This document shows, piece after piece, positions 23,802 through 38,875 of a stretch of DNA of 64,000 bases. Under the pieces are notes generated by a model, which saw only the letters and a program-made list of their open reading frames with translations, searched no databases and was not told where the DNA came from. The stretch covers positions 21,778-85,777 of the forward strand of contig JBKQQP010000006.1 in the NCBI GenBank assembly GCA_052144335.1, read 5' to 3'. The first letter of the stretch is position 1. The number at the start of each line of letters is the position of its first letter. This DNA is from Syntrophales bacterium. GTDB taxonomy: Bacteria; Desulfobacterota; Syntrophia; Syntrophales; UBA2185. The translations under genes were made by a program, and so were the position numbers.

Positions 23802-23999
23802 TTTATTAAATCTGTCATTATGACATTTCTACTCTCCTTTTTTTGTCTTTTTTAACCCCCTTTTGTCACACTATAATTAAGCAATTACGCATACATACGC
23901 TTTACTTCTTTCTATCTTTATGTTTTACCCTGCCTTAGGTGAATTGATGATCTTCTATGCTTTTAGAGAGAATTTATAAATTTTGTGGAGGTTGAAGAA

Positions 24000-24191: not shown

Positions 24192-24231
24192 ACGAGGGAA
24201 TTCGGGATAGGATTCTTAAGAGGGGTATCTT

Positions 24232-26157
24232 GTGGGTAAATTTCTAAAGCCGATTTTTGCTAACATTCCAGAGGAACTTACAAAGCTAAATCAATGGGTG
24301 CTTTTCCGGGCAGAGATACGTGACGGCAAAGAAACAAAACCATTGCACAAACCGGGCGGGGAATATGCGAAGTCCAATAATTCTTCAACCTGGTCAACCT
24401 TTGATGCTGTTAAAAAGGCTTTAGATCGCTTCGACGGTATAGGCTTTGTGTTGACGAAAGATGATCCTTTTGTTGGTATAGACTTTGACAAGTGTTACTG
24501 CCCCGCCTTTGAGATCATTGATCCGACTGTCAAACAGCATATCAAATCAATCAACACTTACACAGAAATTAGTCCGTCCGGTAAGGGTATCCGGGCATTA
24601 CTCCGGGGCAATCTTCCTGTGGATGGCAGAAAAAACGGTCGTGTAGAGATTTATCAATCTAAGCGGTATGTGACCATTACGGGCCATCGGTTGCCCGGTT
24701 ATCCTGCCACTATCGAAGCGAGACAGGCAGAATTGGAAACCTTCTACAAGACGGCATTTCCTGAGAGATCTGAAGATGCAAAACAGACCCCAGACAATGC
24801 GCGCCAAGTTTCTCAATCTCTCACCTGTGATTGGAAGGGCAGACTACAGGCCGGTTTCGGGTCTAAGAGCGGTGATAAAATTAAAAAGCTGTATGATGGC
24901 GATTGGTCAGATCATCCGTCACAAAGTGAGGGAGACATGGCCCTTTGCGCTCATCTTGCTTATTATCTTTCCGGTGATTTCTTGGCTATCGATCAGGCTT
25001 TCCGGAGATCGGGTCTTTTTCGGTCTAAATGGGATGAAAGACGCGGGGGACAAACCTATGGTCAAATGACCATTGATAAGGCTATCCAGGGGTGCACAGA
25101 ATTTTATCAGGAATCTATTAAATCCCCTGCCCATACACAGAAAAACCCCACCAGACTTCTCACAGAGGAAGACCAGTCACATATCGAGAGCGTGAGGCCG
25201 TATGATCCGCCCAAAATCTATACCTTAGAAGATGCCATTCTGGAATCACGAGACTTTCACAAGATCGAATTACCAGAAAAACAGAGCCTTATTCATCCGA
25301 TCATCCGCGAACAACAAATAATCCTTTTGTCTGGATGGCGCGGCGTAGGCAAGACTTGGGCTGGGCTTGGCATCGCCGATGCTGTCACGCGGGGCGAATC
25401 CTTTGGACCTTGGAAAACCGAAAAAACCGTCCCCTGTTTTTACCTTGACGGAGAGATGGCCGCGCAAGATCCTCGGGAACGTCTCAATTTATTAAATCCT
25501 AACAAGGAACGAAAAGCTTTTTTTTACATTTATTCGGACGCTTATGCAAATATCCTGGGCCTTCCCCGCGCTAATCTCATGTCCGAGAGATGGCGAACGG
25601 AAATGAAACGAATCTTAAGAGCACGCAAGGTCAAGCTCTGGATCATCGACAACATAGCTTCACTCGCCGGGGGGATTGATGAAAATTCAAAGAAGGATTG
25701 GGACCCGATAAACTCGTGGCTATTAGAACTTCGCTTTGCAGGGATTACCTCTATTCTCTTGCATCACGTCAATAAAGAAGGCGGACAGCGAGGAACGTCG
25801 GCGCGAGAGGATAACATTGACAGTTCGATAATCCTTAAACACCCACCCGATTATAAGTCGGAAGATGGCGCGGATTTTATCATGTCACACACAAAGAGCC
25901 GGGTTTCTCATCCAGATCTGTCTTTGATTCAAGACGTGCGTTTCAAATTAAGGCAAACAGAAAGCGGACACCTTGAATGGACCTGGCAATACATCAAAGC
26001 GGAGATCAGGTCTTCCGTACTCGATATGCTGAACGATCGCATCCCTGGAAATGAAATTGCAGACCAGCTCGGTATTTCAAAAGGCTATGTCAGCCGGATA
26101 AAGAAAGGCGCGATTGAGAAGGGCATTATAACCAGGCAAGGAAGGTATAAAGAGTGA
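24232..26157 (+). CDS. Replication protein: AEP primase-polymerase N-terminal domain fused to a RecA-like (RepA/AAA_25-type) ATPase and a C-terminal HTH
   Basis: Prim-Pol motifs VGIDFDKC and EISPSGKGIRALL. Walker A GWRGVGKTW. Walker B LWIIDNIASL. C-terminal NEIADQLGISKGYVSRIKK. Confidence 0.75.
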   Translation: MGKFLKPIFANIPEELTKLNQWVLFRAEIRDGKETKPLHKPGGEYAKSNNSSTWSTFDAVKKALDRFDGIGFVLTKDDPFVGIDFDKCYCPAFEIIDPTVKQHIKSINTYTEISPSGKGIRALLRGNLPVDGRKNGRVEIYQSKRYVTITGHRLPGYPATIEARQAELETFYKTAFPERSEDAKQTPDNARQVSQSLTCDWKGRLQAGFGSKSGDKIKKLYDGDWSDHPSQSEGDMALCAHLAYYLSGDFLAIDQAFRRSGLFRSKWDERRGGQTYGQMTIDKAIQGCTEFYQESIKSPAHTQKNPTRLLTEEDQSHIESVRPYDPPKIYTLEDAILESRDFHKIELPEKQSLIHPIIREQQIILLSGWRGVGKTWAGLGIADAVTRGESFGPWKTEKTVPCFYLDGEMAAQDPRERLNLLNPNKERKAFFYIYSDAYANILGLPRANLMSERWRTEMKRILRARKVKLWIIDNIASLAGGIDENSKKDWDPINSWLLELRFAGITSILLHHVNKEGGQRGTSAREDNIDSSIILKHPPDYKSEDGADFIMSHTKSRVSHPDLSLIQDVRFKLRQTESGHLEWTWQYIKAEIRSSVLDMLNDRIPGNEIADQLGISKGYVSRIKKGAIEKGIITRQGRYKE

Positions 26158-26182
26158 CCGCGAAAAATAGTAGACTTTTGAA

Positions 26183-26332
26183 TAAACTGAGCGGTGAATT
26201 TTTTATATTAAACTGATTAGTAAACCAGAGTAAACTGTCTTTGCAAGTTATGGATATATTAAAGAAAAAAGTTTACACATTAGTAAACCAGACAGTTTAG
26301 TTTACTACTCCCCCCGTCAGGGGAGTAAACTG
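26183..26332 (+). repeat. AGTAAAC / TAAACTG iteron cluster with a hairpin
   Basis: TAAACTG occurs at 26183, 26209, 26231 and 26325, and inverted at 26293. ATTAGTAAACCAGA occurs twice (26216 and 26279). There is a hairpin AGTTTACT(AC)TCCCC-CCGTCA-GGGGAGTAAACT. Confidence 0.6.
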
Positions 26333-26358
26333 TAAAAAGACCGGGTTTAAAACCTCTT

Positions 26359-26559
26359 ATGGCTAAAGAAAAACCACAGATTGCAAAACGCCTTTACACT
26401 TTGAAAGACGCAGCGGCTTATTTAGGAAGGCCCGTCTATGGGGTACGCTCATTGATATGGAGCGGCAAGCTGCCAGTGATCCAAACTGGGCGCAAGCAAT
26501 ATATAGACATACGTGACCTTGAATTTTATGTCGATAGAAGCAAAATAACGATGGTCTGA
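26359..26559 (+). CDS. Second excisionase-family (MerR-like) HTH protein
   Basis: LYTLKDAAAYLGRPVYGVRSLIWSGKLPVIQTGRKQYIDIRDLEFYV matches the excisionase DNA-binding domain pattern. Confidence 0.65.
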   Translation: MAKEKPQIAKRLYTLKDAAAYLGRPVYGVRSLIWSGKLPVIQTGRKQYIDIRDLEFYVDRSKITMV

Positions 26560-26584
26560 TGGAAAAAATTGGAAACGTATAGGC

Positions 26585-27045
26585 GCAACAAATGGCAACC
26601 ATACAGCGACACAAAGCGAAACTATGAATCAAAACGCATCATATAGGTAATGAACCAAAACGAACCACAATGCGGGGCAAAACGGGTCAATATATCTTGA
26701 ATCTGTGAAGGCGAGTCAAATCGAGTCATGAAAACGCAAGGATTAAATGTATTCGCCCTACACACACAGATTGATTGAATTAAAAACACGCGGCGGGACA
26801 AATCGGGACATAGCAGAGGCGAGACGCTTGCATTGCGAATCCATTGTCCCTTCTGTGATCCTTTATTTGCAAGGGTTTCCGAGGTTGTGTAACTGTCTTG
26901 TAACCATATTTTATGTCTTTAATGCTGAAGTGAATGGGGAAAATCAGGATAGAACAAATGACGATAAGCGAATCAAACAGAGTCATAGGCTCGCGATTAT
27001 ATGCCCCGGAGCTTCAAGGATACCCCGGGCGCAACAAATCGCAAC
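26585..27045 (+). repeat. Array of 15-bp units of the form GNNNC-AAAWS-GNNNC
   Basis: Exact units: GCAACAAATGGCAAC (26585), GAACCAAAACGAACC (26652), GAGTCAAATCGAGTC (26713), GGGACAAATCGGGAC (26795) and GCAACAAATCGCAAC (27031). There are several degenerate ones. The core CAAA(A/T)CG is present 6 times. Confidence 0.55.
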
Positions 27046-27109
27046 AAGGAAGCTACCCTGAAATGCCGACTGCTTGGAGGCATTGGTTAAGCTGAAAGAA
27101 AAAGAGCCA

Positions 27110-27149
27110 GGGGGGGAGGGGGGAGAGCGGCAGAGGGGGGGGGTATGGG
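27110..27149 (+). repeat. G-rich tract (G7, G6, G9, G3 runs)
   Basis: GGGGGGGAGGGGGGAGAGCGGCAGAGGGGGGGGGTATGGG lies about 130 bp upstream of the 27276 ORF. Confidence 0.8.
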
Positions 27150-27275
27150 ACCCGCTGAAGCCATTTCCGCTCTACACACAAGGCCCCAAAAAGTAAATTA
27201 ATAATTGGTACAGCGATTAACTTAGTATAGCCTACACGGTGCTTGACCCTCTGGGGCTTTATATTGGGATGAATT

Positions 27276-27593
27276 ATGAAACTTCTAAAATATATTGCAC
27301 CTCAAAAGCTGATCGTAAACGGAGATCCTTCACCTTGCGAGTGTACCGACCTTGTCATTTGTGCTTACTGTGTCCAGGTTAATCTGTTAGGACTTGAAAA
27401 GAAATTCAAGACCGATGAAAGCGCAACAAACAACGTCATAGCCTATATCAGGAGAAACGGTATACGCAAGACAGCAAGAGACCTTGATGTGCAGGATAGC
27501 AACGTAAGGTATTGGTTAAAGACTAAGAACGTCCCCCAATTTGTGATCCAAAAATACGCGGGTGCGCAACTCAATGAGTTACCCTACACGTAG
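27276..27593 (+). CDS. Hypothetical protein (Cys cluster plus HTH-like C-terminus)
   Basis: 105 aa with CECTDLVICAYC, then IRKTARDLDVQDSNVRYWLK. No family assignment. Confidence 0.4.
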   Translation: MKLLKYIAPQKLIVNGDPSPCECTDLVICAYCVQVNLLGLEKKFKTDESATNNVIAYIRRNGIRKTARDLDVQDSNVRYWLKTKNVPQFVIQKYAGAQLNELPYT

Positions 27594-27818
27594 CCTATTT
27601 TTTGCGCACTTGATACATTGAAATCATTGAGGTTTTTTGATCGATTTTTGGGACTTTGAGATATTACCCGAAGCAGATTTTGTGTAGTGCTTTTCCGTTG
27701 ATCTTTGAAATTCAATTCAAGGTGCGATAACAACCAGCCTGAAGTCGGTTGTAAGTGACGAAAGAAAACGAATCCCACTTGGGAAAGGATGGAAACAGAG
27801 TCACCTGGCTAACAACCA

Positions 27819-27930
27819 GGTAGGGCGCCTAACCGAAAGATGGCAATTTTTAGATTATTGCTTAGCACCCACAACTGTTCAGAGGGGGGCAGTTGTCAAG
27901 ATTGAGGATTACGAATGGAAAGTGAGTAAC
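27819..27930 (-). repeat. Cassette-junction repeat, copy A
   Basis: GGTAGGGCGCCTAACCGAAAGATGGCAA ... ACAACTG/CAGTTGT hairpin ... TTGAGGATTACGAATGGAAAGTGAGTAAC. It ends 7 nt from the stop of the 27938 gene. Confidence 0.7.
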
Positions 27931-27937
27931 ATAAAAA

Positions 27938-28540
27938 TCAACCGCGAAGGCACGCTTTAGTTGCCCTAATTTCCCGTTCGAGGAATTCATCTATAGACGG
28001 TTCATCCACGGGAGGCACTTCTTTTTCATCACTCTTTTTTCGCATCTTGCCAAACAATCCCTCAAACTCGCAATATACGGGTTCTTTGTAATCCTCACGA
28101 GCTTTTGCGATTCCTTTTTCAAATATGCACCAATAATATTCGATGTTCCATGATTGCACATCCCACACGACATCTTCGGGGATTGCGTTTATCTTGACGA
28201 ATGTTCCTAGCTCTTCAAAATAATTAGCAATATGCTCACAAGCTCCATCAAATTCTCGCTTCCCCTCTTTCCACCGACTACATACGTCGCAACGGACGCG
28301 TTGCATAATTTCCGAATCCCATCGCTCTTGAATTCTACAAACCGCTTGGACAACGTGAGACATCGCTTCAGTTTCCGTCTGTTTCGTCTGAAGCTTTACC
28401 TGCTTAGCGATGGAGAACACCTGCTTAACAATAAAGATAAGTGTAAGGGCTATAGCAACAAATTGGCAAAACGACCAAAACCATTCTGAGCCTATTCCCC
28501 AGTAGTGTGTTGGCATAACTTGCGTCACCTCATTCGTCAT
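27938..28540 (-). CDS. Hypothetical protein with a single N-terminal TM helix
   Basis: 200 aa. The TM segment WFWSFCQFVAIALTLIFIVKQVF is followed by a Cys/Trp-rich soluble domain. No catalytic motif was recognised. Confidence 0.5.
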   Translation of the reverse strand: MTNEVTQVMPTHYWGIGSEWFWSFCQFVAIALTLIFIVKQVFSIAKQVKLQTKQTETEAMSHVVQAVCRIQERWDSEIMQRVRCDVCSRWKEGKREFDGACEHIANYFEELGTFVKINAIPEDVVWDVQSWNIEYYWCIFEKGIAKAREDYKEPVYCEFEGLFGKMRKKSDEKEVPPVDEPSIDEFLEREIRATKACLRG

Positions 28541-28792
28541 AAAATCCCCACAAGGAATTGTATCACACTGCCTTGTGCTCTAACAGTGTTTATATGGAAC
28601 CGCATAACATCCCAACTCATTTACTGGACTGCTAATATCTTCCATTCCAATAAAGGAGATTTATAGAGATTCATTGATGAACGCTCATGTTCAAACCTTG
28701 GTACGTTACAGATTACTATTTGAAAGTATGGATGTCCGTCAAGATTATGGAAAACTCTCTTACAGGAAGAAGCAAAATATCCGCGCAAGGGG

Positions 28793-28867
28793 TCGTAGGA
28801 AGCCAACCGAAAATGGCACTTTAAAAAAGCTGTTTTCGTCTACAACTTACGAGCATGAATGGGCCGG
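28793..28867 (-). repeat. Cassette-junction repeat, compact copy C
   Basis: CGTAGGAAGCCAACCGAAAATGGCA ... CTACAACTTACGAGCATGAATGG. It abuts the stop codon at 28868. Confidence 0.55.
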
Positions 28868-29281
28868 TTATATTATCTTGAAAAATACAATTGTAATCAT
28901 TACAAGTAGAATTATTGAAAACCAGATTATTTCTCGTGTTTTTTTTTGCAGCTCAAAATTCAAAACGTGCTGTTTTAAAAACAATATCAGTAATTGCTCG
29001 CGAATGTCCTTACTCACAAAATCTCTGATTAGTTCTTCACTTTTAGCAAGATTTTGCATCGGATCACCATGGAGATATGGTAATTTTCCCATATATTCAT
29101 TAGACAATGATTGGATATCATTTTCATCAATATTAATTCTATATAAAAAATCGCTTAAGACAGTGAGTAATTTTCTGTATTCTTCCTTAAAAGATAGCCA
29201 ACTCGGTAAATCAGTGAAATCAGCCTGCTCTTTATCTTCTTTATATTTACCAAGATAGGTATCTTTAAATCTTTTGACCAT
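28868..29281 (-). CDS. Hypothetical protein with a C-terminal TM helix
   Basis: GGGAGG site before the ATG at 29281. 137 aa, acidic and helical, ending in IIWFSIILLVMITIVFFKII. Confidence 0.45.
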   Translation of the reverse strand: MVKRFKDTYLGKYKEDKEQADFTDLPSWLSFKEEYRKLLTVLSDFLYRINIDENDIQSLSNEYMGKLPYLHGDPMQNLAKSEELIRDFVSKDIREQLLILFLKQHVLNFELQKKTREIIWFSIILLVMITIVFFKII

Positions 29282-29519
29282 AGTCCATCCTCCCGTCATT
29301 ACAAAGCACAAAACCCCGCCTCTTTTAAGAAAGAGGGTTTTGGTAAATCAGTTCATGTTACCCTCAAATAAGTGAAGGGGTTTGTAACTCTATGTATGTG
29401 ACCACGATGAATTAATCAAAGCATTTGGACAACGAACTGTTTTATTATACATATTGTTGTCATTAGTCAACAGAATATCCCTCTCGATTCTGTTAAATTT
29501 CCTCCATAAGGAGGTGAAC

Positions 29520-29789
29520 TTGACAATCGAAGAGGCTTTTGGAGAAGTAATAAGAGAACTCAGAAAGGAATATAAAATCTCCCAAGAGAAACTTGCCGAG
29601 ATAAGCAATCTCGACCGGAGCTTCATTTCACTCCTGGAATGTGGTCATAAGCAACCTTCCTTGGTCACTATTTTTCAACTCGCAAAAGCGTTCGATCTTT
29701 CTCCTTCAAAAATCATGTCATTGGTTGAAAAAAAGACGAAGCATAGATGGAACAAGAAGAAAAATATGGAACGACACAAGGAGCGGTAG
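29520..29789 (+). CDS. XRE-family HTH transcriptional regulator
   Basis: AAGGAGG site 5 nt before the TTG at 29520. FGEVIRELRKEYKISQEKLAEISNLDRSFISLLECGHKQPSLVTIFQLAKAF is a classic Cro/C1 HTH. It is divergent from the 28868 gene. Confidence 0.75.
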   Translation: MTIEEAFGEVIRELRKEYKISQEKLAEISNLDRSFISLLECGHKQPSLVTIFQLAKAFDLSPSKIMSLVEKKTKHRWNKKKNMERHKER

Positions 29790-29893
29790 GGAGCCTAACC
29801 GAAAGATGGCAAATTACAGTTGTCGAGCACACCTACAACTAAATGTTTTTGAAAATTTGAGATGTTGAGAATTACGGATTGAAAGAGTGTAAC
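29785..29893 (-). repeat. Cassette-junction repeat, copy B
   Basis: GGTAGGGAGCCTAACCGAAAGATGGCAA (27/28 identical to copy A) ... CAGTTGT/ACAACT hairpin ... TTGAGAATTACGGATTGAAAGAGTGTAAC. It ends 1 nt from the methyltransferase stop. Confidence 0.7.
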
Positions 29894-29894
29894 G

Positions 29895-31463
29895 TCACGC
29901 TTGACCGGCGCGAGCCCGCCCGGGGCGAAGCGTACGTGTGCAGGCGATTGTTCGATATTCTTGTCTAGGCTCCATCAGTAGCGACAGCTGAAGCTCCGTC
30001 GCGTCGCCCGCTGACTGAGAATGAACAAAATATTTTAGTTCATCTAGCTTGCCAAGGCTACGAGCAAGCTCCACAAAAGAAATTCTGCGAAGCACATCGA
30101 TGGTGATTGGACGTTTTGAATCTGCAAAAACCAGCGACTTCAAGAACGCCTTTGCTTCTACCGAGGACAGCAGCTCAAAAAGAAGATCGGCCTCTTTCTT
30201 GGACTGACATGGGATGGAGTAGCAAGTGTCGTCGACCATGACCGGGCGCTTATCGCAAGGCGGAACTACCACGAAGGACATATTCTTGTAGAGCCCTGAA
30301 ATGGCGACCTTCCAAGGGGCAAACGAATAGGGACCGATTCCAAATACAGAGAATCTAGGACGGTCCCTGTAAATAGAACTCTTTCTTCCGTCCAAAATGT
30401 CTTTATGGCGCATTAAGTATTCCCAGGTTTTCGGGGCTCTCTGTTCTATCTCCGTAGTATCGTCGCCAGTGTGTCTCTGTGTAACCAATACAGCCCTCCG
30501 AATAACGATTCGCCCATTGCCGAGGTCGGAAGACTTCAAAAGAGGAAAGACATAGTCCTCCTCAATTTTGACTGCTTCACCAAATCCGTTGATCAGTATC
30601 TGGCCATTACGAGTTAATTCCATAACCTTGGCAGCATCGTGCTTAACGCCCGACCGCCAAGTATATGTCGTTGATCCGCCATCCAGTCTCTTATGCGCCT
30701 GGTAAACATCGATGTCACAAACCAAATCCCCAGCAACGAATCCGAATCGCGTAGACGCGGATGCTGTATCGAGATCAGAGTAAACCATCGCAACTCGTTC
30801 ATCTGTGCGCTTGCCTGTGGCGAAGAAGAGACAAGCATCGACAGCTACATTGAAATCCGCCTTGGCATCAATGTGAAACAATCTTGAACCCTCGCGCCCT
30901 CCGTCGGTCTTCCAGAAATGTCGCAAGACCTTTCTTGCCGTCATAGTCTTGCACAGCATGGCGATAGCTCCGTTTGATGGAATAGCTTCAATCAATTGGA
31001 TCAACATCCATTCCGCGATATCGAAATTCGATTTACCAGTACGAGCGTCGAAACCGCGCAGTCCCTGAAAGTTCGATTTATGGGGGAGATTCTTGCTTCC
31101 AAGTTGACCCAAGTCGGAGTTTGTCACCCATGGTGGATTACCTATAACGAGAATCCGGTTCTTCGAGGACTGTGCTACATTGCACCTCCAATCCTCGTTG
31201 AAGAAATCTCGGTGGAGAATCTGCACTCCGAACTGCCTCAAGCTTTTGCGAGCGAGATCAACGTATGCCTTGTTGATTTCGTAGCCTATATAGTCCGAGT
31301 TTTCTCCCCAACGTTCTGCCGAAGCTTTGAGGAAAGCCCCCAGCCCGACAGTGGGTTCGATCACGATTTCCGGAGTCCCGAAAAGTTCATTCACGAGCGA
31401 TACAACCCTCGTGGCCAAGCTTTCTGGGGTTTGGAAGTCTCCGTATTCCTTCTTAGGGCTCAT
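29895..31463 (-). CDS. N6-adenine DNA methyltransferase (gamma class, Eco57I/TaqI-like)
   Basis: Motif I VIEPTVGLGAF, motif IV IGNPPW and a large C-terminal target-recognition region. Confidence 0.8.
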   Translation of the reverse strand: MSPKKEYGDFQTPESLATRVVSLVNELFGTPEIVIEPTVGLGAFLKASAERWGENSDYIGYEINKAYVDLARKSLRQFGVQILHRDFFNEDWRCNVAQSSKNRILVIGNPPWVTNSDLGQLGSKNLPHKSNFQGLRGFDARTGKSNFDIAEWMLIQLIEAIPSNGAIAMLCKTMTARKVLRHFWKTDGGREGSRLFHIDAKADFNVAVDACLFFATGKRTDERVAMVYSDLDTASASTRFGFVAGDLVCDIDVYQAHKRLDGGSTTYTWRSGVKHDAAKVMELTRNGQILINGFGEAVKIEEDYVFPLLKSSDLGNGRIVIRRAVLVTQRHTGDDTTEIEQRAPKTWEYLMRHKDILDGRKSSIYRDRPRFSVFGIGPYSFAPWKVAISGLYKNMSFVVVPPCDKRPVMVDDTCYSIPCQSKKEADLLFELLSSVEAKAFLKSLVFADSKRPITIDVLRRISFVELARSLGKLDELKYFVHSQSAGDATELQLSLLMEPRQEYRTIACTRTLRPGRARAGQA

Positions 31464-31484
31464 AGGAATTTAAGTCCTGCATCA

Positions 31485-31979
31485 TCACCAATCTATACTA
31501 TCTGGATTTTTTATGAATCTTTTGGAAAAGCGTTCATGTTTTTTGTGCTCTTTCTTTCTGTATGTCTCGTATGCCGACAGAAATCCCTTATAAAATTCTC
31601 GTTTTGTCTGATCTCTGATAATCTTCAAAGGACCAATTTTCTGAATTACACCGTAGCCCTGAGCTTCTATTGACAAACAGTCCCAGCTGATTTGTTCAAT
31701 CGGAATCAGATCGGATTCATCCAATATTTTCAAGTCATCTCCCTCTTCCTCATAATCTACAAATATGAAGCTTAGTTCATTTCGATCCTCGAAGACCCAT
31801 TTATGCATCTTCTTAATAGAAATCATGTTGGGTGAGTAATTCTGTTTAGCGACGTTGTTGCTCTTCACGTTTACAGCATGATTATCAGCCAGCATAAAAT
31901 CGCCGACTGCTTTTCTGGTCGTTGTGCTTTTCCCATATTTGTCTGCCATCAAAATTTCGATTCTACTGTATGCATCCAT
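31485..31979 (-). CDS. Putative type II restriction endonuclease (assigned by position)
   Basis: 164-aa ORF 22 bp upstream of the methyltransferase on the same strand. It has a possible PD-(D/E)xK-like GDFML...AVNVKS. No confident family match. Confidence 0.4.
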   Translation of the reverse strand: MDAYSRIEILMADKYGKSTTTRKAVGDFMLADNHAVNVKSNNVAKQNYSPNMISIKKMHKWVFEDRNELSFIFVDYEEEGDDLKILDESDLIPIEQISWDCLSIEAQGYGVIQKIGPLKIIRDQTKREFYKGFLSAYETYRKKEHKKHERFSKRFIKNPDSIDW

Positions 31980-32416
31980 AGTCAGTTATTCCAGGTGTCT
32001 TGCTGTTTATCGAACAATTAATATACGAACTTCGCTTTTCCGATGATTTGGATATCACTTTAACACAGATCATTTACATTCAAAAGAAATATATGACATA
32101 ATTACAAGAGAGTACTTATTCACATCATTTCGGATATTATGGTAATAAAGACTAAAAAAGAACTTCGTGAAACGTGGGAAATTTGTCCAATACTAAAGTC
32201 TTGGGATCGTCGCTGATGTGATCATTACGCATAGAATTCTTGTATCCATGCAACATAGGACAGCCTATTAATTTCAGGAAGGAGTGTGTGTTTTTCTTTT
32301 AGACTAACCAAGTCCGGTTGATTAGCGGGTTAGGAATCGATTTCCATTGGGGCAGCATATGCAACTTCGAATTTGAAGCATGTTATTTCTTGGTGGGTAC
32401 TGGATTAAAGTCGTTC

Positions 32417-33133
32417 CTAAGCAATTGATAGCTTTATTGGCAGACTCTTTGGGTCATATATCTTTTGCTTGCCCCATATTGAGTCTAGATAGCTTTCGTC
32501 TGCAATGGCAATAGAAACCAATTTGAATAGGCTTGCAACTTTCGAGATAAGTTCTGACTCATCGACTGGTAGAGCTGAACCGTTGTTTGACAGAGTCGCT
32601 ATCCTTGTAATAAAAACCACAATAATTGTCGGCGTGTTCTTTAGTTCAAATGCATTGAATGTAACCAACCCCTCAGGTAACTTGAACATCATGTGATCTG
32701 CAAAGCTAAACCCATTGCTGCCATACTTTTCGCGAATGTCCTCTAGGGTAGTCTTTCCGAACGCTACGCCCTCAATGCCAGATTCTGTACTTGACTCTTT
32801 GTAATTCCAATCTACTTCGGCATATAAGATTCTGTCGTCTTTGCTGTCGTAGGTTACTGATATCTCATTTCCATTTTCGCACTGCCATTTCGTAATTTTC
32901 ATCGTACCAAAACCGTTGCGAGCTAGAGGCTTCAGGTTTAGCTTCTGCGCTGATTGGATACTTGTCCCAATCCTGATGCCGTTTAAGGCCTTATCCATGA
33001 CCTGCCAGTCTGTATTGCGCGCCGAGTTCAGTTTTGCAGCGACAACCTGCCATATGAATGCAATTATTGCAATGGCTGCACTTAATATTCCGGCTATCCA
33101 CGACCACTTTTCTAACGATGCAGGTATTTCCAT
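32417..33133 (-). CDS. Membrane-anchored hypothetical protein
   Basis: 238 aa. The N-terminal TM helix WSWIAGILSAAIAIIAFIWQVVAA is followed by a mixed alpha/beta domain without recognisable motifs. Confidence 0.45.
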   Translation of the reverse strand: MEIPASLEKWSWIAGILSAAIAIIAFIWQVVAAKLNSARNTDWQVMDKALNGIRIGTSIQSAQKLNLKPLARNGFGTMKITKWQCENGNEISVTYDSKDDRILYAEVDWNYKESSTESGIEGVAFGKTTLEDIREKYGSNGFSFADHMMFKLPEGLVTFNAFELKNTPTIIVVFITRIATLSNNGSALPVDESELISKVASLFKLVSIAIADESYLDSIWGKQKIYDPKSLPIKLSIA

Positions 33134-33212
33134 TTTGGCACTAATTTAACCAACGGCAGCTAAACTGAGGGGGCAGACGTTAGGAACTGGTCTCTCTGTG
33201 ATTTGTTGCAGC

Positions 33213-33977
33213 TCATTTAGTTATCACTTCTTTAAAAATGGCTCCCATCTCTTCGGAAGCACGAATTAATATCGGGGTAAGCCATGTAATACACGCTGAT
33301 GTGTAGCGTTCTTCTATTTCGCTGTGAATACCTCTACCTCGTTCCTGTTCGCCCATCCTATAAAAGCTCATCGGAAGTGTGTGAACATGAACAGACAAAA
33401 ACCCATACATCATTCTATATTCAGCTTCTTCCAAACCAATCCGTCGGACGATCTCGTCTTTGGGCATAACATACGCTTCCTTTCCCTTAAAGTAACGCTT
33501 CTGTTGTTTCTCATCGAGGGAAGAGAAAAACGCATTAGATGTTAGTCTAGTCCTTAACTCATCAGCCTCCACATCAAATTTTTTAAGATACTCTTCATCT
33601 TCTCCCATGGTCTCAAAGATTTTCTTTCGGGAGATACAATCGTGGAGGTTGAACAGATTCCATCTACAATCCCATTCATCGTGTGGAACATTTTCGACGC
33701 AAAGATAATAAAACGCCATATAAGACTCAAATATACTTCTAGTTAGAGTTGCTACCGAAGCATAATCCCAGTGATCAAAGAAGTGTTTTGACCATCTACT
33801 ATTTGGTAGTAGCATTAATAAACTGAAAGAGGATGTGCATATTCGTGTAAAAATCACTGATGCAAAAAAATGCATTCCTGTCGGCGAAGGAATTCCTTCA
33901 CATTTCTTGGAAACACCAGCACAACGAATAACAGCAGCATCAAATTTACCTAATTCATCTGAATAACTCATCAGCAA
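33213..33977 (-). CDS. Hypothetical all-helical protein with an R-x6-H motif (possible HEPN/DUF5677-like)
   Basis: 254 aa with RWNLFNLH at residues 105-112. The assignment is weak and motif-level only. Confidence 0.4.
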   Translation of the reverse strand: MLMSYSDELGKFDAAVIRCAGVSKKCEGIPSPTGMHFFASVIFTRICTSSFSLLMLLPNSRWSKHFFDHWDYASVATLTRSIFESYMAFYYLCVENVPHDEWDCRWNLFNLHDCISRKKIFETMGEDEEYLKKFDVEADELRTRLTSNAFFSSLDEKQQKRYFKGKEAYVMPKDEIVRRIGLEEAEYRMMYGFLSVHVHTLPMSFYRMGEQERGRGIHSEIEERYTSACITWLTPILIRASEEMGAIFKEVITK

Positions 33978-34004
33978 TTTTTCTTAACTGAGTACACAAG
34001 GGGT

Positions 34005-34112
34005 GGTAGGGTCCCCAACAAACAGGAAGGTGGCTTTTAAAAGTTATTGTCAGTAGGCTCAAACTCACCTGGCACGAATGCAGGCAGCACTCCATTGCAG
34101 TGTCCTGTTCGA
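34005..34112 (-). repeat. Cassette-junction repeat, diverged copy D
   Basis: GGTAGGGTCCCCAACAAACAGGAAGGTGGC aligns with the 5-prime box of copies A and B. The distal part (GGCACGAATGCAGG) is only loosely similar. It abuts the stop at 34113. Confidence 0.4.
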
Positions 34113-35366
34113 TTACATTTCTTCCAGGCGTTTGATTGCATCGTCAACCTCGCCGACATGAGACGCGATTGTGACTCGTCCTCGAAGAGAATTTAGTAGT
34201 TCGAGGCCTCTTGCCTTCGGTTTCGTTTGGTGAAGTTCATCTCGAACTCGTGCATTATTCCTGAACATGGAAGCTACGGTCCGAATCTGATCGGTGTTGA
34301 GTCGGTCTATGAACGCTTGTAAGTGCTCATGGGCTCCGGACCGCCCCCAATAGTTCCCGCACCGTACGGCAAGAATCTCTTGATAGACCTCCTCGAAGCA
34401 TATGGATGGTACACTTGGACCTAATTGTTCGAGCGTTGTGGCAGCGGTGACTTCGGAAGCCCACCCGTAGGAAGAGTCTTTCGCCTTAGCTAGTTGTTTT
34501 GCGGCGTGTCTATAAATCGCCGCACGAGCGGCATCTGGGATGTACTGAATGCCATTGACTTGGATAAGAAAATCCAGAAGACGGACTCGGCCACCTTTGT
34601 CTGAACTCTCGTCAGCATCTGGGTTTATGCTGAGTTGATGATACTTGATTCCAGCGGTCTTTCTGAGGTCTTCCGTCGCCCGCTCCCATACCAAAGGGAA
34701 GAGGTTCTTTGTATTCTGGAGCGCCGGTTCGTTGCCCATGCAGAGCATGTCCAACATAAATCCGAAGCAGATCCGCAAATCCTGCTGACGAAGACCTCGC
34801 ACTTGATCTCTGAGTAAGTCCTGTTGTTCCTTTGACAGTTTGGCTGTCTTGACCGGATCAAACAAGGAGGACACCGAGTGTCCTGGGTCAGGCAGGGGGG
34901 CCTCAAAGAGGTTCTTTTGCAGCAGCAGGACAAGGCCTAGAACATCCTCTCTCTCAACCTTGGAGTCAGTTCCATGCGCAGGAGAAGCATGGTTCCTCAT
35001 CCAGTTGATCATCTCCAGTGCCTTTCCTGCTTTTCTTTTCAGCAATCCCAAACTGGTGGCACCAGAAATCAACGTAAGATCGTCAACATCTTGCCACCGC
35101 TCATTCAGTGTATCGCCTGACAGATCGTATCGTTTTCGGCCGGGCTCATCTTTGACTACGGACAGAAACAAGTCAACGCCGTAGGCTTCGACTCTTCGCC
35201 GAAGGTTGTGTATCGACGCATTCCAAATATCGAGCAGTGCGTGGTCATAGAACGTTGCATCGAAAAGCTTGCGGGCTTGTTGTAGGAGCCCAGTTTCCTG
35301 ACTTACGAGTACGGGAAACATTTCTTTAGAAGGTGTTACAAGGATCGCTGGAAGTGTCTCTGTCAT
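34113..35366 (-). CDS. Hypothetical protein with an N-terminal Abi_C/HEPN-like region
   Basis: 417 aa with ...ALLDIWNASIHNLRRRVE... and LEMINWMRNHASPAHG (R124-x6-H131). This resembles the conserved RN....AHG of Abi_C/DUF4145-type HEPN domains. The C-terminal 250 aa are unassigned. Confidence 0.45.
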   Translation of the reverse strand: MTETLPAILVTPSKEMFPVLVSQETGLLQQARKLFDATFYDHALLDIWNASIHNLRRRVEAYGVDLFLSVVKDEPGRKRYDLSGDTLNERWQDVDDLTLISGATSLGLLKRKAGKALEMINWMRNHASPAHGTDSKVEREDVLGLVLLLQKNLFEAPLPDPGHSVSSLFDPVKTAKLSKEQQDLLRDQVRGLRQQDLRICFGFMLDMLCMGNEPALQNTKNLFPLVWERATEDLRKTAGIKYHQLSINPDADESSDKGGRVRLLDFLIQVNGIQYIPDAARAAIYRHAAKQLAKAKDSSYGWASEVTAATTLEQLGPSVPSICFEEVYQEILAVRCGNYWGRSGAHEHLQAFIDRLNTDQIRTVASMFRNNARVRDELHQTKPKARGLELLNSLRGRVTIASHVGEVDDAIKRLEEM

Positions 35367-35415
35367 ATTGCGATAGCTCCCGTTTTTGTTGGTATGGCAT
35401 ATCAGGTTAACGGCT

Positions 35416-37098
35416 TTATTTTAATGGTTTTATCTTCCACACCTCAATAGCCAATTGAGCCAAATAATTTTGCTGCTCCTCAATTGCGTTTTTGTTCCAC
35501 TCCTTAAATTTGGCAGCTTTTTGCGTAATCAAGAGGTCGGATTTTTCAAATATCTCGCGCTTTGTAATAAAAGAACTACTCCGGATTTTAGAGTTCATTT
35601 TCTGCTTCAATAAAATCATATTACCTAATCGCTTTGTATATGCTTTTCTTTCATCTTCATTGAACTGTGTCCAAGCACCTGAAGCTGGTCGTTCTGGTAA
35701 AATGTGTTCTAAAGTAACTTCAGCGGGGTCGGGGTTGGGTATTAGCTCAGGCTGTGGCTTAGCCATTGCCTGAAGTTCAAGCGCACGTAGATAGTATCTG
35801 CTGAGATTCGCCTTAGCTACACGAGCAGTCGCGAAACTGTCTCGAAATATTGCATCGTTCGGTATAAAGGACTCAGCGCGGGTTGCAATGGCTTCAATGC
35901 TTTTCAATTCCCCAGTTCTAATAGATTTCCCTAATTCACAATAATTGTTTTCCATTGCTCCACCACCAAGACCACCTACAATAAGAAGACGAACATTCCA
36001 ACTGATTAGAAGCCTTAGAATTTCCTCTATATCTTCCAATTTCCAATATGCCAGCACTGATAACAGCATAGGGCGGTACTGTTCGAGTCCCAAAAAAGCA
36101 AGCGTTCGAATGCGTTCACGCGTTATAAGAGAGGCTTCTGACCAAAACTCATGCTCAGGGGATAGTATTGCTGCATAAAGATAACTATTCTTATCCACCT
36201 CATTTGCAAAATCCATAACATTTGTGGAAGTTGTAACGCGAGACTTTATACTGCGATAGAGTTCCTTCTCTCTGACTAATCCATACTTAGAACTCCAGAA
36301 GTGCCTAAGAAAAACCGTAAAGAGATTTTCCCCTCCATACGCTTTTAAAGAAGCCATTGCGGTAGTCCAAAGAATTAGAACTGCTTGAAGGTCATCACCA
36401 GCACGACCTAATAAATAATTCTTCAAGAGATCAGCAATCGAAAGATCAAGACCACTGTCATTCATGGTTTCAAATATCAGGAATGCGTTTGCATCATCAG
36501 CAACTACAAAAAAGATTACATAAGTGGATTCACTCAGATACTTGGTTAGTTCCGCCAGCCAATTAACCGGATCTTTCATGCCATCCAGTTTATTGGAGAG
36601 CCACTTGGATATAGATTGACGTGCATTCCAAAGGCGCCTGTGCGATTCAGGAGCTCCACCCTCCGGCTCATCAGATCCTCCTATCAAAATAGATCGGAAA
36701 TACGGATCGTCAGTTTGGTTTAGCTTAAGTTGCGGTCGCTCCACGCCCTCTGTGATGTCGAATGTTGAAAGGTATTGGCTGCGTATGGCTTGGGCTCGTT
36801 TTTTATCTCTATCTTCGAACTGATCCGCAATCCCTGCAAGCAATAAGGATATGACTGCGAGGCGTTGTTGGCCGTCCAAAACTTTGGGGCGTTCACCATC
36901 CGGAACCGAAATCATTACCAGACTACCCAAGAAGTAATCTTCCTTATTTCTGCTAAAGGCATCGCCAATGTCGTCTATCAATTCTATGACCTCTTCAGTC
37001 CACTCGAACGATCTCTGGTGTACAGGAACCTCTAATCTTGTTGTGCTTAATACTGCTGCTATCCCCTTTATTTCGATTGAGGTGTTTGATTTTGCCAT
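35416..37098 (-). CDS. GmrSD-like DUF262/DUF1524 protein (type IV modification-dependent restriction family)
   Basis: N-terminal VPVHQRSFEWT and VLDGQQRL (DUF262/ParB-like). C-terminal TLEHILPE...RLGNMILLKQKMNS (DUF1524 His-Me finger). Confidence 0.8.
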   Translation of the reverse strand: MAKSNTSIEIKGIAAVLSTTRLEVPVHQRSFEWTEEVIELIDDIGDAFSRNKEDYFLGSLVMISVPDGERPKVLDGQQRLAVISLLLAGIADQFEDRDKKRAQAIRSQYLSTFDITEGVERPQLKLNQTDDPYFRSILIGGSDEPEGGAPESHRRLWNARQSISKWLSNKLDGMKDPVNWLAELTKYLSESTYVIFFVVADDANAFLIFETMNDSGLDLSIADLLKNYLLGRAGDDLQAVLILWTTAMASLKAYGGENLFTVFLRHFWSSKYGLVREKELYRSIKSRVTTSTNVMDFANEVDKNSYLYAAILSPEHEFWSEASLITRERIRTLAFLGLEQYRPMLLSVLAYWKLEDIEEILRLLISWNVRLLIVGGLGGGAMENNYCELGKSIRTGELKSIEAIATRAESFIPNDAIFRDSFATARVAKANLSRYYLRALELQAMAKPQPELIPNPDPAEVTLEHILPERPASGAWTQFNEDERKAYTKRLGNMILLKQKMNSKIRSSSFITKREIFEKSDLLITQKAAKFKEWNKNAIEEQQNYLAQLAIEVWKIKPLK

Positions 37099-37170
37099 TT
37101 CTCAACTCCCGTCGTGAATAATCAAAGTAGTAATGCCATAATCAAACATGGCAGCCCTCTCAGATAAGGG

Positions 37171-37326
37171 TTATTTCTTGGGGGGCTTTTCGTACTTTTT
37201 TAAAAGGTCTTGGATGGCTTCTTCTATAAGCATATTGATGGGCTTCTCAGAATGCACGCCTATCAATTTAAGACTCTTTAAAAGGTCTTTATCGATTCGA
37301 GTTGCAAACATTTTCTTTTCTTTCAT
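37171..37326 (-). CDS. Small ribbon-helix-helix (CopG/Arc-like) protein, absent from the ORF track (<60 aa)
   Basis: Own translation: MKEKKMFATRIDKDLLKSLKLIGVHSEKPINMLIEEAIQDLLKKYEKPPKK*. It shows the beta-strand then two helices pattern of RHH regulators. It lies 72 bp upstream of the GmrSD-like gene on the same strand. Confidence 0.45.
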   Translation of the reverse strand: MKEKKMFATRIDKDLLKSLKLIGVHSEKPINMLIEEAIQDLLKKYEKPPKK

Positions 37327-37543
37327 GGGCTTCTTATAACACAAATGAACAGTTTGACAAATAGAATTAGAATATGTTAGATATCAAACATGCTAACATT
37401 TGAATCTCCAAAACCATAGACACATGAAAATTAAACAAAAAAATGAGCCTGAAGATACCTCATGCGGCGACGTATGGGGCGGTTAGCCTATGACCGGGAG
37501 ACATCTTCAGGTTTTATTTTACAAGAAAGTGAGGGATTAAAAA

Positions 37544-38875
37544 ATGGGGATGATATACAAGAGAAACAAAACGTACTGGATCAAGTATTATCGCAACGGA
37601 AAGCCTTACTATGAAACTGCCAGGAGCGATAAAGAAAATGACGCTAAACGTCTTTTGAAGAAGCGAGAGGGGGAGATCTCAGACGGGAAGCTGCCGGGGA
37701 TCTACTTTGACAAGGTTACTTATGACGAACTGGCAGCGGAGCTGATAACTGATTACGAATTGAACGGACGAAAGTCCCTCACGCGCGTCAAGGTTAGCAT
37801 CATGCACCTGGATCAGGAATTTAAGGGCATGAAGGTTGTCAATATCGATACGCAAAGGATCAAAAGATATATAGACAAGAGGTTAACTGAAGGTGCGACA
37901 AACGGAACAATAAACAGGGAGCTTTCGGCACTCATAAGGATGTTTTCAATAGGCACTCAATCCACTCCCCCGAAAGTTCACACTCCCCCGTTTATTGCAA
38001 AGCTGAAAGAGGCCGTGCCGCGTAAGGGCTTTGTTGAGTGGGGGGATTTTATAGCTTTGCGCGATAACCTTCCCGACTACCTGAAAGGGCTTTGCACTTT
38101 CGGCTATCGTACAGGATGGAGAGTATCTGAGATAACAAATTTAAAATGGTCTGAAGTTGACCTCAATCAAAACATAGTGACATTGAATCCAGGTGAAACA
38201 AAGAATGACGAAGGCCGCGTTGTCTATCTTGATAGTGAGTTAAAGGATATTCTTGTAAAACAATGGGAAGCAAGAAAGAAAAATGCAAGGTTACTCCCCT
38301 ATGTTTTCCTGAATGAAGAAAAGACGGATCGAATTAAGAGTTTTTATAAAGCGTGGCATACAGCGTGTAAGAAAGCCAAAATAGGCCGCCGCTTATTCCA
38401 CGATCTGAGGAGATCGGCGATTAGGAACCTTGTCAGATCAGGAGTCCCGGAAGGTGTTGCCATGCGGATAAGCGGACATAAGACAAGATCAGTTTTTGAC
38501 CGATACAACATCGTAAGCGACGCTGACTTAATGCTTGCAGCGCAAAGGCAAGAAGTCTATTTGAAGGCGCAAAAGGTTACAAAAACGGTTACAATCGAGG
38601 ATTTTCAGGATATTAAGGAAGCAACAGGGGGAGATAACCTATCGGATTCATTGGCGCGCCCACCAGGAGTCGAACCTGGGGCCTTTGGATTCGTAGTCCA
38701 ACGCTCTATCCAGCTGAGCTATGGGCGCTCCATAAAAGTATGGCGGTGCAGGAAGTCTAGGAGTAGTTTGTCTCACCATTTCCCTGCTAACAGGGAAATT
38801 TACAGGGTACTTGACCTAAACATCGCCTCAAATCTGATCATAACTTCCGTTCTACTTTGCACCACCGTAGGGTAA
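37544..38875 (+). CDS. int: Tyrosine-type site-specific integrase
   Basis: YRTGWRVSE (Arg I), HDLRRSAIRN (HxxR), GHKTRSVFDRYNI (His/Tyr). The ORF has no stop before the att repeat and reads antisense through tRNA-Arg to 38875, so the functional C-terminus is uncertain. Confidence 0.85.
   Translation: MGMIYKRNKTYWIKYYRNGKPYYETARSDKENDAKRLLKKREGEISDGKLPGIYFDKVTYDELAAELITDYELNGRKSLTRVKVSIMHLDQEFKGMKVVNIDTQRIKRYIDKRLTEGATNGTINRELSALIRMFSIGTQSTPPKVHTPPFIAKLKEAVPRKGFVEWGDFIALRDNLPDYLKGLCTFGYRTGWRVSEITNLKWSEVDLNQNIVTLNPGETKNDEGRVVYLDSELKDILVKQWEARKKNARLLPYVFLNEEKTDRIKSFYKAWHTACKKAKIGRRLFHDLRRSAIRNLVRSGVPEGVAMRISGHKTRSVFDRYNIVSDADLMLAAQRQEVYLKAQKVTKTVTIEDFQDIKEATGGDNLSDSLARPPGVEPGAFGFVVQRSIQLSYGRSIKVWRCRKSRSSLSHHFPANREIYRVLDLNIASNLIITSVLLCTTVG
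38651..38696 (-). repeat. tRNA-proximal att repeat
   Basis: 46 bp identical to 22810-22855. It covers the tRNA 3-prime end through the anticodon. Confidence 0.9.
38652..38728 (-). tRNA. tRNA-Arg (anticodon ACG), CCA encoded
   Basis: GCGCCCATAGCTCAGCTGGATAGAGCGTTGGACTACGAATCCAAAGGCCCCAGGTTCGACTCCTGGTGGGCGCGCCA folds as a cloverleaf. It has a 7-bp acceptor stem, GCTC/GAGC D stem, TTGGA/TCCAA anticodon stem with loop CTACGAA, and CCAGG/CCTGG T stem. Confidence 0.9.

Follow-up and report, generated by a model that had tools for sequence, protein, structure and literature searches.

What are the related sequences that recur at the ends of successive minus-strand genes in a small genomic island of a Syntrophales bacterium? 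The window analysed here is a 64-kb stretch of assembly GCA_052144335.1 (contig JBKQQP010000006.1, positions 21,778-85,777, forward strand), and all coordinates below refer to it. The island lies in a tRNA-Arg gene, is bounded by 46-nt att direct repeats (22810-22855 and 38651-38696), and encloses all copies of the repeat together with their cargo; the Logan contig L142 is this island alone. A preliminary description had presented the repeats, labelled A to D with a possible fifth, E, as 3' elements of the minus-strand genes that adjoin them, the cargo being organised in discrete cassettes. The modular layout is borne out, with one copy at each module end, and comprises five modules in the window with four certain copies and one possible copy (E). 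The modules are functionally unrelated to one another, and their setting is as follows:

22810-38696, no strand assigned: genomic island in tRNA-Arg, 15.9 kb, with defence genes aboard
24232-26559, plus strand: primase-helicase gene (24232-26157) and HTH_17 gene (26359-26559), from Pfam; conserved module upstream of the element
27938-28540, minus strand: module 1, DUF4760 protein of 200 aa (Pfam)
28868-29789, both strands: module 2, 147-aa gene (minus) and XRE/control-protein-like HTH gene at 29454-29789 (plus) (Pfam; PADLOC control protein)
29895-31979, minus strand: module 3, type II methyltransferase of 522 aa and 164-aa partner (PADLOC MTase_II, 510 bits)
32417-33977, minus strand: module 4, 238-aa protein and DUF5677 protein (Pfam)
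34113-37098, minus strand: module 5, 417-aa protein (phrog_27609) and GmrSD/HEC-06 nuclease (profile matches)
37544-38875, plus strand: tyrosine integrase (Pfam), not an integron integrase

Every copy stops 0-8 nt short of the stop codon of a minus-strand ORF, much as first described, and the copies are real repeat elements, but the family reaches about 130 nt further left in copy A, from 27691. Repeats A-D represent a plus-strand, structured RNA-like element of about 240 nt, once in full and otherwise in shortened form, and what had been taken for 3' elements of the minus-strand genes is instead the 3' part of this element, on the strand opposite the cargo. The full form, at 27691-27930, opens with a pseudoknotted 5' domain of about 150 nt, continues with a 26-nt box that is invariant (GGTAGG..GCCTAACCGAAA.ATGGCA), and closes with a 3' module that varies. 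The copies in the window are:

27691-27930, plus strand: copy A, full-length (R1 match at 27691-27857, 137 bits, E = 8e-28)
28660-28867, plus strand: copy C, reduced/degenerate (R1 match at 28660-28830, 39.8 bits, E = 9e-7)
29691-29893, plus strand: copy B (R1 39.6 bits; 3'-module HMM at 29785-29906, E = 1e-21; pattern matches)
32268-32416, plus strand: possible copy E, box-variant short-form type (blocks collinear with the second copies in L042 and L109)
33994-34112, plus strand: copy D, degenerate (box variant GGTAGGGTCCCCAACAAACAGGAAGGTGGC; repeat-search family D3)

The 5' domain of copy A (27691-27818) comprises a P1 hairpin, a 3-bp pseudoknot, a long-range P2, P3, and a P4 hairpin; it is followed by the box (27819-27845), TTT, and an X-type 3' module (27846-27930) that terminates in GTAAC, with a 3'-module HMM match at 27819-27941 (E = 4e-22). 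Copy B has the box (29785-29811) and a full X-type 3' module to 29893; its 5' domain survives only as faint remnants, which the XRE ORF overlaps with its C-terminal tail. The two are clear homologues, and several features originally listed for them were recovered, namely a common proximal box, with a chance expectation of none in 100 shuffles, a distal box TTGAGRATTACGRATKGAAAG that is present in A and B only, and a hairpin with swapped arms (ACAACTG..CAGTTGT in A, CAGTTGT..ACAACT in B). Copy C, of the short-form type ACAGGAAGAAGCA..P4..box, is matched by nhmmer as well (E = 5e-6); it carries the version of the proximal box reported for it (GTAGGAAGCCAACCGAAAATGGCA at 28795-28818) and has a truncated 3' module, and its 5' type, the degenerate part of which extends to 28660, is identical in kind to that of L138 and L052.

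Copy D has a box (GGGTGGTAGGGTCCCCAACAAACAGGAAGGTGGC) that is identical at 28 of 34 positions (our own count, alignment A6) to a natural variant from a full-length copy in L104, both carrying the same 5-nt insertion, and the stop of the 417-aa gene falls in the terminal GATTAC of copy D; its match to the covariance model is nevertheless not significant (9.4 bits, E = 3.3). Copy E is plausible, as its blocks, which include TTCAGGAAGGAGT, AATCGATTTCC..GGGGCAG and GGATTAAAG and terminate at the stop of the 238-aa gene, are collinear with L042 and L109, but it gave no significant match with any HMM or covariance model used. In an unfiltered covariance-model scan of the whole 64 kb, every significant copy lay on the plus strand between 27.7 and 29.8 kb.

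The structure of the element is conserved by covariation. Among 44 sequences, 92.5% of cells were paired against 75.7% in shuffles, with compensatory changes in 16 of 21 pairs; with 75 sequences these values were 93.0%, 70.7%, and 17 of 18, and the covariation score was 0.479, compared with at most 0.10 for slid controls. Alignment A8 was fitted to the model, and the result was the same with a MAFFT alignment (A4). On the plus strand there are 75 G-U pairs and 14 A-C pairs. Because covariation and G-U pairs both fit the plus strand, the conserved structure is assigned to that strand, opposite the cargo genes; its pairs are kept by compensatory change and its G-U pairs are strand-specific, as in a structured RNA. 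The box is invariant in sequence and its flanking stems covary. Conservation breaks off sharply after ATGGCA(W)TTT, and behind the box lies a short U-rich tract (T frequency 0.64-0.77 at +2 to +4, background 0.32). Single-sequence folding energies of the element are unremarkable. Searches of Rfam 15 returned no match to the element at gathering thresholds over the whole window, two chance-level matches only at E <= 10 on 27550-27990, and none at E <= 1 on four canonical loci. That the element is a widespread structured RNA motif, previously uncatalogued and absent from Rfam 15, is well supported.

A scan for further copies, which had been suggested at the outset, showed that the box is present at 21 loci in genomes and at least 120 in metagenomes, and that about half of these loci score above 100 bits with the model; the element is present in more than 140 environmental contigs, mostly of Desulfobacterota. 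Gene order is constant: primase-helicase, HTH_17, element, convergent cargo, tyrosine integrase, tRNA. At other loci the primase lies 2-5 kb upstream of the element, and homologues of the island integrase (59-65% identity) are found 1.2-3.6 kb downstream. In L094 and L054 about 8 nt separate the end of the HTH_17 gene from the element, and the full-length form belongs to this upstream operon, not to the cargo. The first gene 3' of the box is convergent in 74 of 91 unique contexts (81%).

The position of every copy directly past a stop codon is what 3'-end elements of the minus-strand cargo mRNAs, acting in termination or stability, would display, and a shared terminator or RNA-stability structure had indeed been put forward. 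But covariation and G-U pairs place the structure on the opposite strand, the full-length form is part of the upstream operon, and on the gene strand a stem followed by a T-run is found after the stops only as the reverse complement of P4 in copy A, a weak match with a weak tail, and not in B, C, or D. Module 3, a two-gene restriction-modification (R-M) unit, is 88.7% identical in DNA to L145-L149 over positions 29948-32027, and near-identical copies of it exist elsewhere without the element and outside such islands. Given the missing gene-strand stem and T-run and these element-free R-M copies, we rejected a terminator of the cargo genes, and consider a 3'-end role for the cargo mRNAs very unlikely. 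Each copy might instead be a working plus-strand cis-regulatory RNA, by which antisense transcription into the convergent module is started, stopped, or modulated, or the island operon is shielded from that module; modules would then keep their copy from need. The convergent layout in 81% of contexts, the U-rich tract behind the box, and the apparent constraint on the box and 3' module of short forms (B; L006, L042, L109) are in keeping with such a function; the lack of any functional relation between the cargo of different modules, the existence of the same R-M module away from the element, the lack of enrichment of promoter and terminator consensus sequences at the copies, and the loss of the covarying 5' domain from reduced copies all argue against it, and we judge it rather improbable. 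The preliminary description had also raised a miniature mobile element and a recent local duplication taking in the ends of the genes, either of which could leave several copies within 6.3 kb. Within the 64-kb window, however, the copies are confined to the island and point in one direction, neither terminal inverted repeats nor target duplications accompany them, the proteins encoded next to them are unrelated, and the sequence beside B is derived from the methyltransferase, so that we give this origin hardly any credence. A MITE/REP-type dispersed repeat was likewise rejected, on the restricted and single-strand distribution found in the unfiltered scan of the 64 kb.

Close relatives carry different cargo beside the element, as the preliminary description had proposed to ascertain, and the change comes where the box or the 3' module ends. 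L024 and L051 are 90.8% identical over 600 nt, and this identity stops exactly at the box end; L005 and L115 have a common right arm from -41. Overall, the switch points differ in position, at 0, +27, and +42 on the right and from -41 to -147 on the left. Co-oriented multi-copy arrays, with copies separated by minus-strand genes, are found in at least eight other contigs (L022, L113/L056, L104, L008/L111, L089, L009, L053, L101), and the combination of a full copy with co-oriented reduced 3' fragments, seen here for A versus C, B, and D, also in L022, L113, L104, and L008. The 5' domain is not reduced in every case: L009 and L089 each hold two nearly full copies. In copy B the box and 3' module are intact and the 5' domain is decayed, which hints that the short form may have its own function and not be a scar. 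On the cargo side, the R-M homology ends 7-9 nt from copy B, where the ORF of its relatives runs on for 45 codons, and cargo-side ends look arbitrary.

We lean, by a modest degree, towards the interpretation that the element, a plus-strand structured element of roughly 240 nt present as one complete and several reduced copies, is a junction where cargo modules are joined and accreted; the initial suggestion of a recombination site for cassette exchange is plausible. As RNA, the element would form the 3' end of the HTH_17 transcript, and at the DNA level its box and 3' module would be the place that joins foreign DNA to the island. Each new module would bring, or duplicate, a box-3' module, and older copies would be shifted towards the integrase and lose their 5' domain. 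The resulting array, A-C-B-(E)-D, would parallel the partial tRNA copies that serial integrations leave behind. Joining may be site-specific, or may rely on short invariant homology plus illegitimate ends. Counting against this reading, the only integrase of the island has an att site of its own, in tRNA-Arg; the differing switch points, the two nearly full copies in L009 and L089, the intact short form of B, and the unremarkable folding energies weigh on the same side. A plausible role of the RNA would be the control or insulation of transcription across the variable region towards the co-oriented integrase.

Accretion might also proceed by an integron-like system, in which a recombinase cuts the invariant box and circular cassettes with a short-form copy integrate at the full-length copy, the enzyme being the island tyrosine integrase at a second site or an unrecognised one. 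As in integron arrays, the cargo units are co-oriented and each has one repeat at its 3' end, the units are transcribed away from the tyrosine integrase gene, and cargo is highly variable; moreover, the most degenerate copy is the farthest from the full-length one, and the invariance of the box between covarying stems and the abrupt end of conservation behind it would suit a cleavage site. On the gene strand, at the distal side of the repeat, the box of A and B contains GTTAGGC, which fits the integron core consensus GTTRRRY (C has GTTGGC), but the box that contains this motif is invariant for other reasons, and the copies offer no RYYYAAC partner for it. The integrase itself is not IntI: TIGR02249 (NCBIfam) gave 16.1 bits where the cutoff is 265, the models that match best describe Xer-like or generic phage integrases, and its att site in tRNA-Arg does not resemble the consensus box. 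Folded as DNA on both strands, copies A-D have z-scores of -1.2 to +0.4, their ends do not pair, and they lack the R''-L''/L'-R' imperfect hairpin; without an IntI signature and an attC fold, we rejected their identification as attC sites. Also at odds with an integron-like system are the lack of dyad symmetry in the box, the variable junction positions, and the R-M module apparently captured with an arbitrary end inside coding sequence; nor was any circular cassette seen. Unlike integrons, the conserved structure is on the strand opposite the cargo, a pseudoknotted domain of 150 nt extends the terminal copy, and cargo units have their own upstream regions and may hold several genes. We regard such a system as unlikely. 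Sites of pdif/Xer modules are 28 bp long, with two inverted 11-bp arms around a 6-bp spacer, and alternate in orientation; these modules were rejected, as the box, read directly, has no dyad symmetry and all copies are co-oriented.

Another known parallel is found in the tycheposon islands of Prochlorococcus, where serial integration at an RNA gene leaves partial tRNA/tmRNA copies (bioRxiv 10.1101/2020.12.28.424599). Both have one complete RNA gene followed by co-oriented 3' fragments that separate cargo blocks, a tyrosine recombinase with a primase/helicase module, integration at a tRNA, and newer units that push older ones along the array. In contrast to tycheposons, the RNA gene repeated here is no tRNA and lies within the island, the fragments have variable left edges, and the units between copies appear to have no integrase or integrase remnants, no integrase domain being found in any ORF there. 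P4 hotspot elements, as far as the available part of their description goes (PMC13586616), are likewise small integrative elements with a primase, an AlpA-type HTH protein, and an integrase, and have a single hotspot of fast-swapped defence genes beside the integrase; that part mentions neither a repeated junction element nor a structured RNA at the P4 hotspot, Desulfobacterota are the hosts here, and no capsid-hijacking genes were seen. The element also resembles the int-alpA RNA (RF02996), of which Rfam finds a match within the tRNA-Arg island at 23022-23089, in being a structured non-coding motif on integrative elements, but differs from it in sequence and structure.

The fast exchange of cargo in defence hotspots of satellites and small islands was addressed in a 2026 survey of P4 and P2 hotspots, which discusses transposons and homologous recombination and considers both insufficient (PMC13586616). 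An invariant sequence at every module junction, embedded in a conserved structured element, provides a concrete site to test for recombination. It is conceivable, if improbable, that it represents a second gene-capture platform independent of integrons, in which the DNA of a structured RNA gene would serve, via its invariant 26-nt box, as the attachment point for serial insertion of defence cassettes into small primase-integrase islands, by a non-IntI recombinase or the island replication machinery, with the RNA perhaps taking part or regulating. Independently of the cargo question, the new RNA motif combines a pseudoknot with long, single-stranded invariant stretches. In Desulfobacterota and other sediment bacteria the box is a cheap marker for islands of this kind and for what they carry, and the element may help explain how these islands collect and swap cargo.

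All of the repeats lie within a 15.9-kb genomic island of the window, and the unit of the preliminary description (proximal box, hairpin and distal box) is the short form of a modular element whose long form is copy A.

Features of the island in the window, with bit scores of the covariance model of the element (R1) for its copies
22810-22855 and 38651-38696: att direct repeats, 46 nt, 3' part of tRNA-Arg(ACG)
23022-23089, plus strand: int-alpA RNA (RF02996) match, 36.2 bits against a gathering score of 35.8
Between this match and the primase-helicase: first HTH_17 gene
24232-26157: primase-helicase with NrS-1-type HBD and AAA_25 domains
26359-26559: second HTH_17 gene
26582-27056: iteron-like direct repeats (GGCG.GACAAATCG.GACA and relatives), downstream of the primase-helicase and second HTH_17 gene
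27691-27857: copy A, R1 137 bits
28660-28830: copy C, R1 39.8 bits
29691-29823: copy B, R1 39.6 bits
37544-38875, plus strand: tyrosine integrase, after the cargo block

The iteron-like repeats (26582-27056) probably mark the replication origin of the island. The int-alpA RNA match, barely over its gathering score, lies just inside the left att repeat. At the other end, a 9.4-kb, almost wholly minus-strand cargo block is followed by the plus-strand tyrosine integrase, whose ORF has no stop before crossing the opposite-strand tRNA-Arg gene (38652-38728, minus strand), so that its last ~75 codons extend over attR, and excision would change them. The integrase/GmrSD intergenic region holds a palindrome, TGCCATAATCAAACATGGCA (37134-37153), which has ATGGCA in common with the end of the box, and beside it a 51-aa ribbon-helix-helix-like ORF (37177-37332, minus strand). 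The island alone, from the integrase to a 230-aa gene, forms L142, a public Logan contig (SRR31840437, 15,855 nt) that represents either the island excised as a circle or an assembly that broke off at the 46-nt att repeat. Exact-protein look-ups for variant arrays of this island returned the identical island only.

The shared boxes described initially were recovered in copies A and B, the proximal one at 27819 and 29785 and the distal one at 27902 and 29865, with none expected by chance. Copy C bears a shorter version of the box, the hairpin with swapped arms in A and B is present in the sequence, and 0-8 nt separate the end of each copy from the stop of a minus-strand ORF. On neither strand does any copy fold into a strong single-strand hairpin. 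For copy D (33994-34112), the box agrees with the variant of locus L104 (28/34 identity, by manual count on alignment A6), a variant that shares its CAAAC insertion and is part of a full-length copy; in the covariance model D scores weakly (9.4 bits, E = 3.3). The suggested fifth copy, E (32268-32416), is a candidate that shares three collinear blocks with the box-variant copies of L042 and L109 and was not significant with any model. Weak lone matches to GATTAC..GAAAG of the 3' module, at 28698-28727 (E = 0.3) and 32201-32243 (E = 1.2), may be further decayed remnants. The reverse complement of the copy A box resembles a tRNA acceptor end, which we treated as chance because only A shows the likeness and the family consensus does not.

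The repeat is by no means confined to this island. A scan of one genome per species with the pattern GTAGGNNNCC(N)AACCGAAA(N)ATGGCA gave 21 loci, mostly in Desulfobacterales and Syntrophales MAGs, and a metagenome scan with the box pattern gave at least 120; being found through an intact box, these loci are a sample biased to conserved boxes. The conserved part extends upstream of the box on the plus strand, as it does in copy A, and R1 scores exceed 100 bits in about half of the loci among the matches listed. For Archaea and Omnitrophota, the occurrence of the element is based on MAG binning; L013 (binned as Methanococcoides) and L018 (binned as Desulfobacteraceae) have 92.5% identical DNA downstream of the box, so that mis-binning is likely and the apparent archaeal occurrence doubtful. 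The element is an RNA-like family new to Rfam 15, in which no family matched it; phage, plasmid and viral collections held nothing similar, and the box sequence was not found in the searchable literature.

A MAFFT alignment of 44 sequences (A4) resolved the 5' domain and box into an ordered series of parts.

Parts of the element in alignment A4, in order
1: TG.TCTTTGAAAA
2: optional GNRA-capped hairpin
3: GGTG.GATAA
4: hairpin P1, arms ACAACC/GGTTGT swapped for ATTTCCC/GGGAAT, ACGGCC/GGCTGT and others
5: AA.TCAC
6: AGAAAAC
7: optional hairpin P3
8: GGGATGAAACAG
9: long-range helix P2, CACG/CGTG swapped for CCCGG/CCGGG
10: hairpin P4
11: invariant GGTAGGAAGCCTAACCGAAAAATGGCA

Paired cells amounted to 92.5% in A4 versus 75.7% in shuffles, with both-side changes in 16 of 21 pairs, a count that takes in a 3-bp pseudoknot (GGU with the P1 loop), and a covariation score of 0.431 versus at most 0.10 when partners were slid. 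For 75 distinct model-aligned sequences, an alignment that leans towards the model, the figures were 93.0% versus 70.7%, 17/18 compensatory pairs and a score of 0.479. On the plus strand, G-U pairs outnumber A-C pairs by 75 to 14, and the folded strand is therefore the one opposite to the cargo genes. The GNRA loops favour RNA, with single-stranded DNA a less likely alternative. A putative plus-strand RNA would start near TCTTTGAAAA and end after ATGGCAUUU or after the 3' module.

Several other readings of conserved parts were discarded. Conserved TCTTTGAAAA was considered as a promoter, but the optional hairpin, inserted in a subset, leaves no conserved distance from it to any -10 element. 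Small ORFs from the ATG of ATGGCA give differing peptides that often stop after 3-8 codons. Pairing of box GTAGG with 3'-module CCTAC is possible in many copies, with both sides almost invariant and neighbours that do not covary; 5' TCTTTG and box CGAAAGA likewise lack covariation, and pairing of the P1 3' strand with box AACCGA is lost in P1 variants.

A short T-rich stretch generally follows ATGGCA (T frequency 0.64-0.77 at +2 to +4), beyond which several alternative conserved modules are found.

Alternative 3' modules
X type (copies A and B): GCTTTC.CCTACAA, variable hairpin, TTGA.GATTAC....TGAAAG.G.GTAAC
Y type: ~125 nt, ending in TATAGCAG
Z type: third alternative 3' module

The X type also occurs in L011, L109, L128, L137, L030, L027, L001, L006, L008 and L089, and together with a diverged box it lies downstream of cargo genes in L006, L042, L109, L128, L008, L138 and L054; in many loci, unrelated DNA stands directly 3' of the box. 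Alignment-based folding found no consensus structure for the 3' module, since the position of its hairpin shifts.

The surroundings of the element are also conserved. Fourteen loci have a primase-helicase homologue 2-5 kb upstream, and in L094, L054, L042 and L120 an HTH_17 gene stops a few nucleotides short of the element. The integrase cluster is represented in 21 loci; about a dozen of these have the integrase on the same strand and 1.2-3.6 kb downstream, with 59-65% identity in the closest among the matches listed. Of 91 unique contexts, 74 have the first gene 3' of the box on the opposite strand, its stop a median of 145 nt away. This synteny indicates that the element marks a fixed border, with the island's own genes on one side and, on the other, a convergent cargo region that varies and ends at the integrase.

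Comparison of relatives bore out the expectation that the element would flank different cargo. L051 is ~90% identical to L024, L078 and L110 over 600 nt upstream, and identity ends exactly at the last box base; L096 and L097 are identical up to +42. In L005/L115, L083/L112 and others, the downstream arm is common and the loci differ upstream of -41 to -147. Arrays like that of the window were found in L022 (three copies), L113/L056, L104, L008/L111, L089, L009, L053 and L101. Their copies are always co-oriented, with at least one minus-strand gene between them; usually the first is full-length and later ones, with varying left edges, lack the 5' domain, while L009 and L089 have two nearly full copies each.

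The cargo order in the window is A, DUF4760, C, 147 aa/XRE, B, methyltransferase and 164 aa, (E), 238 aa and DUF5677, D, 417 aa and GmrSD, integrase. This cargo is largely defence-related: the methyltransferase, with its 164-aa partner, is type II (PADLOC MTase_II, 510 bits), and it is accompanied by a control-protein-like XRE, a GmrSD/HEC-06 nuclease, DUF4760, DUF5677 and unknown proteins. The 417-aa protein adjoining copy D (34113-35366, minus strand) matches phrog_27609, of unknown function, over its full length (377 bits), and nothing in Pfam, NCBIfam or PADLOC. The 164-aa and methyltransferase pair (29904-32027) is a mobile two-gene unit, present in unrelated contexts in L145-L153 (82-89% DNA identity), of which L150-L153 have it in a block with a GmrSD gene and a short integrase-domain ORF; the C-terminal tails of the methyltransferase vary in length (497, 509, 522 and 565 aa). 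The module occurs in contigs without the element at 88.7% DNA identity, and no element copy was found adjoining close methyltransferase homologues elsewhere. Its homology to a second contig group ends 7-9 nt from copy B, while the ORF of that group runs 45 codons further. The end on the cargo side thus looks arbitrary and the one on the element side (…GTAAC) is fixed, which also explains why stop codons lie so close to the copies.

One option proposed initially was that the element belongs to the cargo genes as a 3' terminator or stability structure. This reading did not hold: the structure is on the other strand, the gene strand has no terminator-like feature, and the full form lies in the upstream operon, so that the element is not part of the cargo genes. 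The overall layout is like that of an integron, but the tests that define one failed: the copies form no attC hairpin and lack an R'' box, and the integrase is of a kind other than IntI. The pattern most resembles that of tRNA-linked islands such as tycheposons, in which partial tRNA copies mark successive integrations; here, however, a putative RNA gene inside the island is involved and the units have no integrase. Fragments of the tRNA-Arg att were sought within the cargo region and none was found, the two terminal copies being the only ones. As far as we checked, no description exists of an internal RNA gene whose copies recur at the junctions between defence modules.

In our reading, it is at the box and 3' module that cargo DNA becomes joined and modules accrete; reduced copies would be leftovers of earlier joining events. 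Joining could be carried out by a dedicated recombinase, or proceed via short invariant homology with illegitimate outer ends; a clean integron-type reaction is disfavoured by the scatter of some switch points and by the arbitrary cargo end. That the box is invariant, has a sharp 3' edge and persists in copies with a decayed 5' domain argues that it is recognised by something. The element follows HTH_17 directly, is convergent with the cargo and shares its strand with the distant integrase; from this position we conjecture that the RNA helps to manage transcription through the variable region.
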